Shown here: positions 24,401 through 30,400 of the stretch, in pieces
Layout of the letters: each line of letters begins with the position of its first letter
Position numbering within the stretch: position 1 is the stretch's first letter
Origin: Eledone cirrhosa
Taxonomy: Eukaryota
DNA length: 64,000 nucleotides
NCBI GenBank assembly: GCA_964016885.1
Contig: OZ024757.1
Span: 34,596,001-34,660,000, forward strand
Direction of reading: 5' to 3'
Notes under the pieces: model-generated
The model's input: the letters and a program-made list of their open reading frames with translations, nothing else
Databases searched by the model: none
What the model was told of the DNA's origin: nothing
Position numbers and translations under genes: made by a program

Positions 24401-27400
24401 TTGCTGAGGCTTCCAAAACGACCAAAAGAAAATATATATATATATATATTTATATATATATATAATCTGTATGGAAAGTTAGGTGCACCCCACAATATCC
24501 TGCCAGATGCAACTTACCCTCGGCAAGCAAAATATAACATACCCAGCCCTCATTTTAACTCACACTCCTATCACTGCTACTCCAGCCTGGCTAAGGACAT
24601 GAAAAGCACCCTAATGTTATCATGAAATAGTACTGGTGCTAAGATAAAATACACCCACTCCACTCGGTAAAGTGGTAATGCTGCTCATATATACATTATA
24701 TATATACTATGTATATTCTATATATACACTATATATGATGCTGTCCATGGGAAAGGCAAAGATCAATACAGCTTGGCACCAGTAACATCACAATTTATTC
24801 CTACAGCTGAGATACAATGCCCAGTTCGAGAGTTGAACTTCCAACCTCATGATTGTGATCCCAACACTTTAATCACAAAGCCTCTCACCTTCACACATAT
24901 AATACCAATTTGCTGTTAATTTACTGGTGGAGGTGAATGGCCCAGTGATAAGGGTGTTGGATTTACGATCATAATGTCATGGGTTCCGTTACTGGACTGG
25001 GTTGTGTGTTGAGTTATTGAGCAAAACACTTCATTTCATGTTGTTCCACTATACTCAGCTGAAAATGAGAACCAGAAATAGTTGGGGGTTTAACTCTGTG
25101 ATGGACTGGCGTCTTGTCCAGAGAGCAGTCTTGTACTCTCGTTGCTTTATGCCCCAGAAACCAGGATAAGCACTAGCTTGATGAGCCTTTGAGCTTGAAA
25201 CAGACTTAAACCCTGTGAGGGTCATGTGTCCTGTCCAGCAGGCAAGTCTTGTACTATCAGTTGTTTAACACCACAGAAACTTGGATAACCTCTGTCCTGA
25301 TGAGCCTCTGGGCTCGAGACAGACTTCAGACTTTTTCAGTTAAATAAAATAAATAAATAGCAACTGCTATGTAATGTCTATAATTTAAATGTAAATTTTC
25401 ACCATCACAGTTTTCAACATTAAAATCATTGTTCGGTGAGGTGAGGAACTGGTCAATTCTTTTATATGATTCGAAAGTCTGAAAATGAAAAAAATATATT
25501 GGTACAATTTGAGATAAATTGAAAATCAAAATTAAGAGATATTACATCATCATCAAATCAGGTGAAGTGCCTGGGCCCTTTATTTTTTACTAGCTGAGGT
25601 ACCCAGCTTCACCCAAGAGAATAGTTAAGAGAAGATGGATAAAAGAGAAAACGACTGTATTGGATGTGTTGTCTGGTATGAGGTGAGACTGTAATGTGTG
25701 GGTATGAGAGTGTGTGTGAGAGAGACATGAACAAAACAATCATAAAACTTCCTTATTTTGCCCTCTTCCTTGTGAGGCAATTACAGCAAAAGTACCTAGC
25801 TAAAAGTAAGCCACTCTACTTGGCATTTGTCGACTTTGAGAAAGCCTTTGACAGAGTTCCACATGCTGTAATCTGGTGGGCTCTTAGAAAACTAGGAGTA
25901 GATGAATGGCTTGTGAAAGTGGTACAAGCCATGTATAGTGTAGCAGTCAGCAAAGTTAGGATTAGCAATGAGTATAGCGAGGAATTTAGCGTACAGGTTG
26001 AGAGACTGAGCATAAGAGGAATCAAATGCTGTGTGCAGGAGAGGCGGTTGCGCTGGTATGGACATGTGATGTGTATGAAGGATGACAGCTGCATAAAAAG
26101 GTGCAGAGCACTAGAAGTTGATGGAAACTGCGGAGTGGGGAAACCCAAGATGACCTGGGATGAGGTGATAAAAGCCGACCTTACCCAATTACACCTCTCA
26201 ATGGCAATGACACATGACCGTGACTTCTGGCGTCACGCAGTAATACAGAGTACCCGACCCCCCATGGGTACAAGCTGAAGCATATAGACAATATGCCCCC
26301 ATTTCCCCCACCGCAAGGTGGTCGTGGAGGTGCCACGGCAAAAAAGCACCCAGCCCACACTGTAAAGTGGACGTGTAGGCACCACGAAAAAGCACCCAGC
26401 ACTCACTGTAAATGAGGTTGGTGTTAGGAAGGGCATCCAGCTGTAGAAATCAAGCCAAATCAGTTCCTGTATGAGCAAGGCATGGTCAGCCGACCAGACA
26501 CTGCCCACAACAGGACAACCCGTCTAACCCATGCTAGCGTGGAAGAACGGACGTAAAACGGTGATGATGATGATGATGATTATATATATATATATATATA
26601 TATATAGATATATATAGATATATAGATATATATAGATATATATATATAGATATATATATATATATATATATATATATATATATAGATATATATATACATA
26701 GATATATATAGATATATATATATGTATATATATATATATACATATATGTATATTAACGGCTGAGCAGCCTAATTTGCATATGTACGACGTAATTCGGGCT
26801 GTTTGTTTACAAACAAACCGAACGTTATAATAAATACACCCTGTATATTCAGTAATGTGGTTGCCATTAGGAAGGGTATCCAGCTGTAGAAACTCAATGA
26901 CCCATTAATCCAATAACCCAGTAACACAGTGGCCTAATGATCTAATAACACAGTCACCCAAATATGTTGATCTTCTTACCTTTGTACAATCAACAACAAC
27001 ATCTGGGAAAATCACAAAATTGGTCTCGAGAATGCTGGTAGCCATAAATATCATGAAGACGTTCTCGGTACTGAGGTAATCTGTACCTTTGACAAAATAC
27101 AGGGTCATACAGATTAACATGGTCACCTGGCAAGAAGGATAGAGAGAGAGGTATATATATATATATATATATATATATATATATATATATATATATATAT
27201 ATATAAATTAATAAAAATAATGAATAAAAACAAAGAAACAGCTCCTTATATTAAAAAATTCATCATTTTACGATCGTTTCTAGGATATATATGTTTGTGT
27301 TGGTATGTATATCAATGATATACATACCAACACACACATATATATCGTAGAAACGATCGAAAAATGATGAATTTTTTAATATAAGGAGCTGTTTCTTTGT

Positions 27401-30400
27401 TTTTATTCATTATTTTTATTAATTTATCTTGACTCTGTTTTCCTGTATTTTTCATCGTAAAAAAAAAATGTTTAATACATCTTCTCTTTTCATGATATTC
27501 GGATTACATTGAGTTCTTCATACGGATTGGACACTACCGTACATTTTGGTAGATTTATCTACATATATATATATATATATATATATATATGTATAGTGAC
27601 GAAACATAAGTCAATTGCATGAACTCATAATCCTTTATTTACTGCTATATATATTTCGATGATAGCCATTGAATGGTTATGACCTCATCAGGCAGTTAGT
27701 CAGTTCTTAGATATGCCAGCTCTGTGTTTATAGTGTTGATGGTATCAGAGCCTTGGGACATATGAGCTTGTTAGGAATAATTTAATGTTGTCAGCAGGAA
27801 TAGTCTTAATTCTCATTGGTCAGTTTGTAGATGCTAGTAGGGTTGGTATTTGACCTCAAAGAGGCAGGTGGTGTTGTAAATTTCAAACCGTCAGGCAAGA
27901 TGGTTTGAACTTTACAACACCACCTGCCTCTTTGAGGTCAAATACCAACCCTACTAGCATCTACAAACTGACCAATGAGAATTAAGACTATTCCTGCTGA
28001 CAACATTAAATTATTCCTAACAAGCTCATATGTCCCAAGGATCTGATACCATAAACACAGAGCTAGCATATCTAAGAACTGACTAACTGCCTGATGAGGT
28101 CATAGCCATTCAATGGCTATCATCGAAATAGCAGTAAATAAAGGATTATGAGTTCATGCAATTAACTTATGTTTCGTCACTGTTATAACTCCGGAACTTA
28201 TATCTTCGTTGAGTGCTCCCTATCTGCATACTGAAGTACTGGATTTTACCAACACTTACTTTCTTGCTTATATATATGTGTATATATATATATATATATA
28301 TATATATGTATATATATATATATATGTATATACACAATAGTGGTAATAATAATAATAATATTAATAAATGGATTATTAAAACTACTTTACCAGATAGTTA
28401 AAAGCTCAATGTGATGGGGTTCATGCAGAGTTGTTATATATTAATTCTAAAAACACCATAGATTCAAGGCATTGTCAAACTTAAACCTCAGCCTAGGGTC
28501 ATAGTCCAAAAACCTCAAATTTTTTAATCTTTTATAGTTTTACAACTTGACCTTCAGGAGTTGGTTCAAGGTTGGAATCATCAGAGTTTATTTCTACATC
28601 ATCAATATTTCATATGGCTTCACAGTTCATTATTCATATATCATTCTGAGTTCAAATCCCGCCGAGGTTAACTTTGCCTTTCATCCTTACGGGGTCGATA
28701 AAATAAAGTACCGGTAATGCACTGGGTATTTGCTGGCCTTGTGCCAAAAGTAGAAAGAATTATTCATATATCATTCACTATAACAACAGATTACAAGAAT
28801 ACTCAAGAAATTTCAAGATTTCGAGAAATCTCCAAAAACTTTAAAGCATCTTCACAAAGTAATGAATAAGAGTTCTTTAAAAATTTTTTTAAAAATCAAT
28901 ATCAAAACAATATCTTTAAGGGTTCATTTAAAAATAACTTGAGTGTAGTAATGGTGTAGGTATAATAAGTTTTGTGACATTTGAACTGTCTGTCTCCTGG
29001 TAATACCAACTAGGGTGTATCTTCATGCATTCTACCATGTCTGGTCAGTCCACCAGCTCATTGCAAATATACCGTAGATAGGAAGAGAAAGACAGAGAAG
29101 AGAGTGCCAAAAATCAATACTTACCACAAATGGCAGAACTTCAGATATAGTGCTAATAAGTCCTTCCCATAGAAGGATCTTTTGTAAGAAATTTAATTCT
29201 TTGATTCGAATGTCTTGTAATTTCTTTAAATAGATGGATTCTTGAGCTGTGAGTTTTACTACCTGTAAATATCATTGTAGATTATTTCAATGATGATGAT
29301 AGTGGTGGTGGTGGTGGTGGTGGAGGCAGTGATGGAGGTGGTAGTGGTGGGGGTGATGGAGGTGGTAGTGGTGGTGATGGTGGCAGTGGGGGTGGAGGTG
29401 GCAGTGGTGGTGATGGTGGCAGTGGTGGTGATGGTGGCATGGGTGGGGTGGTGGTGATGTTGGTGGTGGTGGTTGTGGTGGTGATAGTGGTAGGGGTGGT
29501 GATGGTGGCAGTGGTGGTGATGGTGGTAGTGGTGGTGGAGGTGGCAGTGGTGGTGAGGCTGATAATGAGGGTAGTGGTGGTGGTGGTGATGGTGATAGCA
29601 GTAGTTAAGAAACTTCTTTCCTCACCTTTATCTTGTCCATAATTTCCTTCATAAGACATCTTCGGCTGTCCTTCTCGTTCATGTAGTTTTCCTGATGTCT
29701 GCTGATCTGCAGCAGACATAATCGGACCACAATGTACATGGGAAAGACAAGGAAGCAGAAAAGGGCCTCATTTCCGATATATTGGACCAGTATGACGAAG
29801 CAGATGAGCAACTGGAACGGGGCTGAGAAGAGGACCCAGAAGTAAGCAACACATTCTCGGAAAATGTCTGCATCATTTGAGAGGAGGTTGGCTATGGAGG
29901 TGTCTTCCATGATTTCACCTCGTTTCCTGAGCAACTGGAAGAGGAGAAAATATTAGAGAGGGAGTGAGAGAGAGACAGAGCGAGAGAGAGAGAGAGACAG
30001 AGAGGGAGAGAGAGGGAAACATGCATACATTGGTGAGTAAAGAGGTAATGGTGGTGGTGTAGTATAGTGTAGTGTGGTGTGGTGTCGGTGGTGGTGGTGT
30101 ATGTGGTGTAATCTGATGGTGGTGTGGGGATGATGGTGTATGTAGTGTGGGGTGTGGTGGTGTATGTGGGGTGGAGTGGGGTGTGGTGTATGTAGTGTGG
30201 TGTGGTATGGTGCGTAGTGTAGTGTGGTGTGGTGTGATGGTGTAAGTGTGGTGTGGTGTGGTGTGGTGCAGTGTGGTGTGGTGTGGTGGTGTGCTGTGGG
30301 GGATGGTGGTGTATGTGGGGTGGAGTGGGGTGTGGTGTGGTGGTGGCAGTGTAGTGTGGTATGGTGCGTAGTGCAGTGTGGTGTGGTGTGATGGTGTAAG

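Follow-up and report, generated by a model that had tools for sequence, protein, structure and literature searches.

Insertions of Penelope-like elements (PLEs) have been described in which direct pseudo-long terminal repeats (pLTRs) lie next to an inverted pLTR, with a 31-bp tail on one of them, and in which solo pLTRs also occur (PMC3846280; this and the other sources are cited from their accessible parts). Inverted, 5′-truncated copies with a tail of 30-40 bp and a bias for (TA)n were found in Naiads and ascribed to Neptune too, and the supplement of the same study includes five cephalopod Naiads that prefer (TA)n, two of them with half hammerhead cores (PMC8557442). Here we analyse a set of small fold-back elements in a 64-kb stretch of the Eledone cirrhosa genome (assembly GCA_964016885.1, contig OZ024757.1, positions 34,596,001 to 34,660,000, forward strand), referred to as the window. 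These elements are likely to be 5′-truncated insertions of several PLE families that bear an endonuclease (EN), probably of the Neptune type, reduced to the 3′ pLTR and the hammerhead motif in it; the enzyme of these families is predicted to use (TA)n as its target.

The hammerheads of pLTRs are known mostly from single truncated copies and had low activity in vitro; they include variants with a palindromic helix III, and pairs on opposite strands 100-700 bp apart (PMC4209133). In the PLE studied in PMC11167929, AT-rich DNA was nicked on both strands, two internal starts of reverse transcription bounded the tail, and the hammerhead was assisted by protein and dispensable for insertion in vitro. 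Retrozymes are tandem repeats derived from pLTRs (PMC7229834; bioRxiv 10.64898/2026.07.22.740005). In Octopus vulgaris 31 recently active PLE families were reported, ribozymes not being mentioned in the accessible part of that paper (PMC13282606).

The initial annotation of the window had noted that PLE pLTRs carry minimal hammerheads and that Penelope insertions often have an inverted 5′ pLTR, and this design is indeed the published PLE insertion pattern (PMC3846280; PMC8557442; PMC4209133). What is new are these particular families, their long tails with a shared 11-nt motif and one informative apex junction. The annotation knew of no description in cephalopods, which must be qualified in view of the (TA)n-targeting cephalopod Naiads; the complete hammerhead motifs reported below do differ from Naiads. 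Our literature search for hammerhead-bearing or inverted truncated Penelope elements in cephalopods found only PMC8557442; subscription papers, Repbase and Dfam were mostly outside its scope and may well hold such families. A search on Penelope fold-back, snap-back, hairpin and second-strand terms found nothing.

Element structure and insertion sites

The elements are labelled E1 (2581-2967), E2 (23713-24185), E3 (27203-27562), E4 (27595-28268), E5 (43619-44452) and E6 (49905-50300), and the solo units S1 (2375-2548) and S2 (22685-22950). On self-comparison, arms joined head to head (5′ to 5′), with a tail on one side, were found in E4 (27595-28268; 92% identity over 602 aligned nt), E3 (27203-27427; 97% identity), E6 (49909-50234; 76%) and E1 (2714-2967, in minus orientation; 74%). 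The refined limits of these four fold-backs between TA runs were 2581-2963, 27206-27562, 27595-28268 and 49919-50298. E2 (23714-24177, plus strand) had a variant layout, in which an inverted arm of 38 nt was followed by a tailed unit and, 281 nt on, by a tail-less second unit. E5 lay outside the design, its fold-back being at the opposite end, with no tail motif and no TA run at 44452. The common design that had been proposed for six elements therefore applies to E1, E3, E4 and E6 and, as a variant, to E2, and does not extend to E5. In those five elements the inverted arm ended at the same tail-less site and the tail was confined to a single side. Arm length varied between elements, and the two arms of one element were 2-26% diverged.

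E3 and E4 are adjacent. A (TA)n target (27152-27205) stands to the left of E3, whose inverted tail-less arm (27206-27315, minus strand) is followed by a forward arm (27316-27427, plus strand) and a one-sided tail of 135 nt (27428-27562, plus strand). The two elements are separated by (TA)n at 27563-27594. The inverted tail-less arm of E4 (27595-27902, minus strand) includes a few more 5′ bases of the parent than does the forward arm (27903-28181, plus strand), which ends at the main 3′ end of the family; a one-sided tail of 87 nt (28182-28268, plus strand) and a (TA)n/(TG) target (28269-28324) complete the insertion.

A TA run of at least 6 nt was present within 5 nt of 12 of the 16 element ends, against 6.9% of 20,000 random positions, a count that is biased in that the elements had been chosen partly by their TA flanks. 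With this qualification the TA flanks noted at first were borne out, and the loose ends of other E4-family copies showed the same AT-rich or (TA)n insertion bias. Pairwise alignment compared with 100 shuffles sorted the elements into three families, namely E4 with S2, E1 with E3 (z 8.8, no shuffle as high) and E2 with E6, leaving S1 and E5 unpaired. The relationship of E2 and E6 was weak (z 3.5, 1 of 100 shuffles as high), and further alignment supports the pairing.

Palindromes of this kind could also have formed after insertion, through local DNA events such as breakage at TA tracts followed by fold-back repair, or be products of assembly. The non-LTR fragment at 54803-56194, which is unrelated, likewise shows its 3′ end in a further, inverted copy between TA runs, and no read-derived contig spans the whole of 27866-28276. 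However, the divergence of the arms argues against an assembly chimera, and five elements share the tail-less end site and the one-sided tail, as published for PLEs. We consider an origin after insertion, or in assembly, very unlikely.

Other copies of the E4 family

Four public sequencing runs, among them X1, X4 and X15, were mapped onto 27866-28276. In X1, 742 contigs fell on this interval, 595 of them at a likeness of at least 95%, and the E4 family is thus a multi-copy repeat. Summed contig depth, which is not a copy number and to that extent weakens the argument drawn from it, was 11-16 thousand at 27866-27921 and 36-50 thousand thereafter, peaked at 130-423 thousand over 28062-28173 (236-423 thousand at most bins) and was 6-8 thousand after 28187, in the tail. 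Some of the step near 28050 is owed to a gap of 9 nt in the reference arm, which makes it sharper and again weakens the argument; the polarity, rising toward the 3′ end with a sharp drop past it, was clear despite this effect.

Sixteen contigs ran past 28181 as (AT)n, and both S2 and the inverted arm of E4 stopped at the base that corresponds to this family end. The reads showed the tail in a minority of copies, and some copies started out of TA runs at 28048 and 28067. In 251 X15 reads, three X1 contigs and one X4 contig the sequence continued beyond the apex on its 5′ side and agreed among them. Since family copies extend 5′ of the apex, E4 is a 5′-truncated copy of a longer element and not a tandem retrozyme. 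Truncation at the 5′ side with a fixed 3′ end, as seen in the depth staircase, the sharp end at 28181 and the upstream continuation, was found for the E4 family only. Peaks of X15 read ends at 27983, 28012 and 28158-28163 were disregarded as presumable AATT sites of a restriction-site-associated DNA library. An exact E4-family probe had no match in metagenome and viral contigs.

S2 (plus strand), a solo tail-less copy of this family with 98% identity to the inverted arm of E4, has its 5′ end (22656-22823) repeated three times in 50-bp units of element and flank-like sequence. There is microhomology between element and target, and the reiteration resembles repeated template jumps or later slippage.

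The same reads can be read as the trace of dedicated non-autonomous PLE derivatives, similar to short interspersed elements or retrozymes, in which hammerhead RNAs of a few hundred nt would be transcribed by themselves and moved in trans by a PLE enzyme. The hammerhead segment of about 130 nt is several-fold deeper than the sequence 100 nt upstream, some copies begin from (TA)n at 28048 and 28067, E2 has its two direct units 281 nt apart, protein searches did not find a coding parent, and PLE precedents have been published (PMC8557442; bioRxiv 10.64898/2026.07.22.740005). However, coverage climbs stepwise with no single fixed 5′ end, copies extend 5′ of the apex, and arm lengths differ between elements in the manner of truncations. 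Head-to-tail units with intact hammerheads were absent from the window, both units of the E2 pair being mismatched. Such derivatives therefore seem unlikely, and plain truncated PLE insertions explain the E4 family, given the truncation staircase, the 5′ continuation and the lack of tandem arrays. Of the several non-autonomous Penelope or retrozyme lineages first suggested to target TA microsatellites, the PLE link and the targeting are supported by anatomy and reads, and the non-autonomous or retrozyme status is not shown.

Retroelement polarity, with a sharp 3′ end and a ragged 5′ side, also argues against fold-back DNA transposons that target TA in the manner of miniature inverted-repeat transposable elements (MITEs) and would merely carry the hammerhead motif along. 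Such transposons would account for long inverted repeats and for the TA flanks, but the repeats are not terminal, one end being tailed, and one-armed solo copies exist (S2 and most reads). We regard this origin as highly improbable.

Hammerhead motifs

A strict descriptor of the type I hammerhead, run on both strands of the window with 100 shuffles as control, gave three matches (shuffles: mean 0.11, maximum 2). These were in S1 (2436-2502, plus strand), S2 (22850-22905, plus strand) and E4 (27641-27696, minus strand). S1 (plus strand) is a solo unit of a further family and has no tail. In E4 the complete motif, with a helix I of 5 bp, a long helix II, a helix III formed by an 8-nt AU palindrome and a UA site, is on the inverted arm. 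The forward arm (28086-28135, plus strand) lacks 6 nt of helix III and reads GAAA-UA only. In 1330 of 1518 X15 reads 5-6 extra bases followed 28127, ATATAT in 1186 of them, which identifies the long palindrome as the form typical of the family and the shorter one of the E4 forward arm as the result of a deletion.

A relaxed descriptor additionally found the E4 forward arm, without helix III, and the first unit of E2, with two core mismatches. With two core mismatches allowed, 3-20% of shuffled elements matched too. The weak cases are thus not established by the descriptor alone, and matches in E5 and E6 at that level are uninformative. E2 contains two direct degenerate copies 281 nt apart (23771-23855 in the tailed unit; tail-less unit 24062-24135), with two and one core mismatches. 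E3 had no CUGANGA on either strand and has only the 3′ half of the core (GAA, 8-nt palindrome, A), at 27269-27280 in the inverted arm and 27350-27361 in the forward arm. E1 has a decayed version of this half core, and its CUGAUGA at 2637 is antisense to its tail and fails every descriptor. The decayed fold-back E6 (plus strand) keeps CUGAAGA in both arms (50062, minus strand; 50106, plus strand), with GAAA and helix III decayed.

A perfect 8-nt palindrome (counting A15.1/U16.1) stood after GAA and before A or C in each of three unrelated families, and in seven units the tail-less 3′ end followed the putative cleavage site at a distance of 45-67 nt (by inspection, about 54 nt in S1). From this placement and this distance to the 3′ end we argue that the decayed cases are hammerhead remnants. 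The palindromes are predicted to pair only in trans, the self-duplex having -3.2 to -13.3 kcal/mol and the hairpin 0.

On the sense strand of the 3′ repeat, the motif is thus complete in S1, S2 and E4, degenerate or halved in E1, E2, E3 and E6, and absent from E5. The initial annotation had placed a type I hammerhead in the forward arms, with 6-nt stem III palindromes and only part of the core in some elements. The partial cores were confirmed and the palindrome length was corrected to 8 nt; the complete motifs are real, but that of E4 is on the inverted arm, E3 is without CUGANGA and E5 without GAAA. E5 has CUGAUGA and a hairpin near its TA-flanked end (43619-44452), a direct repeat of 100 nt, and (CA)n interrupting the fold-back at its other end. 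It may be a Naiad-like PLE end with a half core, or an unrelated element.

The fold-back apex

The reverse complement of 27888-27902 is the end of the upstream sequence seen in longer copies, which means that the inverted arm of E4 reaches further 5′ than the forward arm. At the apex (27889-27902, plus strand), CGTC (27889-92) and GATG (27899-902) form a stem of 4 bp, three Watson-Crick pairs and one G.T, which closes a loop of 6 nt, and the forward arm continues from this stem. The junction fits a cDNA from the left TA tract that stopped, folded back and was extended, and the stem is a candidate priming site for such a snap-back. Under this reading a second cDNA, started on the other strand, must have supplied the tail. 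The apices of E1, E3 and E6 are likewise loops of few bases.

The upstream sequence is open in a frame that gives LPDGLKF in the inverted arm and DGLNF in the forward arm, where the first ~80 nt may be the end of an open reading frame (ORF; stop at 27983-27985). P-x-G-L-N closes the GIY-YIG domain in the published alignment of Neptune and Naiad (PMC8557442), and the resemblance of LPDGL[K/N]F to this end may serve as a lead only.

The tail motif

The tails were 64 nt long in E6, 87 nt in E4, 99 nt in E2, 133 nt in E1 and 135 nt in E3; E5 had been removed from the family beforehand, and S1 and S2 are tail-less. The motif CRTYGAGYNCT was present in all five tails examined, from three unrelated families, starting 52-62 nt before the 3′ TA run (E1 2622-2632, E2 23949-23959, E3 27507-27517, E4 28207-28217, E6 50246-50256). 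These were its sole matches in the window, where 0.63 were expected. Because the motif was picked after looking, the best shared 11-mer was also scored among random trios. In each of three controls, 0 of 300 random trios attained the score of 9.0 that was obtained with one tail per family, and 1 of 300 attained the 8.5 of the other trio. For all five tails together the score was 8.5, which 0 of 60 random sets attained in each control. Structure prediction gave nothing common to the tails (z -1.27 to 0.29). We rejected the idea that the motif encodes [IV]-E-[FCH], since stops came within 3-12 codons and third positions did not vary.

A metagenome scan (21 of 64 parts) gave 118 loci with the motif and (TA)6, 38 of them with short flanks. 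A strict hammerhead upstream on the motif strand was found at 2 of the 118, against 0 of 118 in each of three control compartments, and neither was contiguous with the motif, that of L022 being 698 nt off and that of L103 beyond the TA run. Inverted repeats were not enriched at the 118 loci (16 upstream, 23 downstream). The test, leaning negative, did not show the tail motif as a feature of other organisms. Both L103 (about 20-180) and L022 (about 160-205, motif orientation) contain hammerheads that satisfy the strict type I descriptor and have a helix III palindrome of 6 nt, and the L103 unit ends in (TA)n about 70 nt beyond the cleavage site, a similar design in another organism.

The tail motif may be a signal for the enzyme of the element. 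A more specific proposal, which we put forward tentatively and hold to be possible but somewhat doubtful, is that of a long-tailed, (TA)n-targeting PLE subgroup. Here CRTYGAGYNCT, about 55 nt before the distal start of reverse transcription, would be a recognition signal of the reverse transcriptase (RT)-endonuclease, kept across otherwise unrelated families, and the palindromes would arise by twin priming and cDNA snap-back. If the signal or snap-back reading is true, thousands of genomic junctions would be a direct read-out of the unexplained PLE inversion mechanism.

Origin of the insertions

Each anatomical mark of the 3′ end of a PLE insertion was found, namely the hammerhead motif, truncation, an inverted copy with a one-sided tail (E1, E3, E4, E6 and, with a 38-nt arm, E2) and the TA bias, and these elements are likely to be such ends. 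As no RT or GIY-YIG ORF is linked to them, membership is likely and not proven, and rests on anatomy. In the favoured model an RT-GIY-YIG protein would nick both strands of a TA tract, and reverse transcription would start at two internal RNA sites, the tail-less end and the tail end, and abort early. One cDNA would fold back at 4-bp microhomology and be extended into the sense strand, which could then pair with the tail-bearing cDNA primed from the other strand, giving a palindrome with a one-sided tail. Hammerhead cleavage would need a dimer or protein, since helix III is predicted to form only between two copies, and the motif would decay neutrally after insertion. The tail motif might act in cis as a signal to the protein, or belong to the pLTR promoter.

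Several results weigh against this account. No hammerhead family from Rfam was among the matches listed (150 of 242) or in further Rfam scans. The monomer was predicted to fold best into a structure other than the hammerhead (-14.7 kcal/mol, against -13.6 and -10.9), and the folding of all 10 segments was no better than that of shuffles (z -1.45 to 0.36). Covariation within families was not shown, the read data being of single sites only, and the four-row alignment of E2 and E6 contained one compensatory pair, in helix II. The tails are longer than the 30-40 bp published, the snap-back reading rests on the single junction of E4, and the residues preceding P-x-G-L-N fit the published motif poorly. 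Protein searches with the apex peptide were blank or gave three spurious matches to bacterial repeat proteins. No PLE RT or GIY-YIG gene was found in the 64-kb window, and the RTs present there fall by motif to non-PLE types, which we take to be RTE-like and R4/Dong-like.

Genomic context

Pieces of an ABC transporter (Pfam) were found on the minus strand at 29608-29952, 10597-11364 and 1854-2372, in the order membrane, ATPase, membrane. From these exons we infer that S1, E1, S2, E2, E3 and E4 are probably intronic in a single ABCC-type gene. The complete hammerhead of E4 is on the host-gene strand but would be locked in a duplex of ~290 bp (about -510 kcal/mol), which is possibly a long double-stranded RNA in the pre-mRNA.

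The fragment at 54803-56194 is a 5′-truncated non-LTR element, presumably R4/Dong-like, with a zf-RVT and a restriction-like endonuclease motif. The inverted copy of its 3′ end is 322 nt long, TA and CA repeats lie between and around the arms, and no hammerhead was found in it. Two related RT fragments of one long interspersed element family, which we assume to be RTE-like, are at 14136-15047 (minus strand) and 25682-26275 (plus strand). Their relatives often have a PHD finger, and a PHD match is located at 56584-57486. A TA-flanked unique stretch at 23187-23630 contains a near-perfect 69-nt hairpin (23291-23359) and a short direct repeat, with no hammerhead core seen, and 23223-23282 recurs at 11258-11317. 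Minisatellite arrays with periods of 58, 74, 39 and about 72 bp occupy 18973-22440, 41158-42113, 46369-49809 and 60075-61220, respectively; dispersed repeats of the window contain pieces that match the 58-bp and 72-bp units. No tRNA genes were found in the window.

Comparison with known systems

As a class the elements are known PLE debris, of use mainly in repeat annotation. Palindromes of this type can readily be mistaken for MITEs or microRNA hairpins, and Rfam returned microRNA models here. The origin of the inverted copies and what the protein recognises are open mechanistic questions in PLEs (PMC8557442; PMC11167929). Testable material is offered by a family that is young and abundant, has two mapped 3′ ends and a snap-back-like junction, and has its tail motif in common with other families.

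Non-LTR retrozymes (PMC7229834; bioRxiv 10.64898/2026.07.22.740005) are similar in being short, non-coding type I hammerhead repeats with pLTR kinship and many solo copies. Unlike the elements described here, which are solo or head to head, with degenerate cores in the sole direct pair (E2), retrozymes form head-to-tail arrays that give circular RNA. Naiads (PMC8557442) share the (TA)n preference, the inverted truncated copies, the tail and, in some cases, half cores. They have an N-terminal EN and are without a canonical hammerhead, whereas the E4/S2 family and S1 possess complete motifs and so fall outside the Naiads. None of eight DNA probes matched the supplement of that study, a weak negative as its FASTA is line-wrapped.

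The minimal PLE hammerheads with palindromic helix III (PMC4209133) agree with ours in the order CUGANGA...GAAA-palindrome-UH, the short helix I, G10.1-C11.1, the predicted dependence on dimers and the opposite-strand pairs 100-700 bp apart. The elements here differ in their 8-nt palindromes and far longer helix II, and the published alignment, in its accessible part, has no cephalopod row. EN-bearing PLEs (Neptune, Penelope/Poseidon; PMC3846280; PMC8557442; PMC11167929) are the closest in overall design. Compared with these, our elements have no linked RT-EN ORF, tails of 64-135 nt in place of 30-40 bp, a helix II region of 27-60 nt and a tail motif common to several families. They share with them 5′ truncation, an adjacent inverted pLTR, a one-sided tail, solo pLTRs, a type I hammerhead in the pLTR, AT-rich or microsatellite targets and two 3′ ends.

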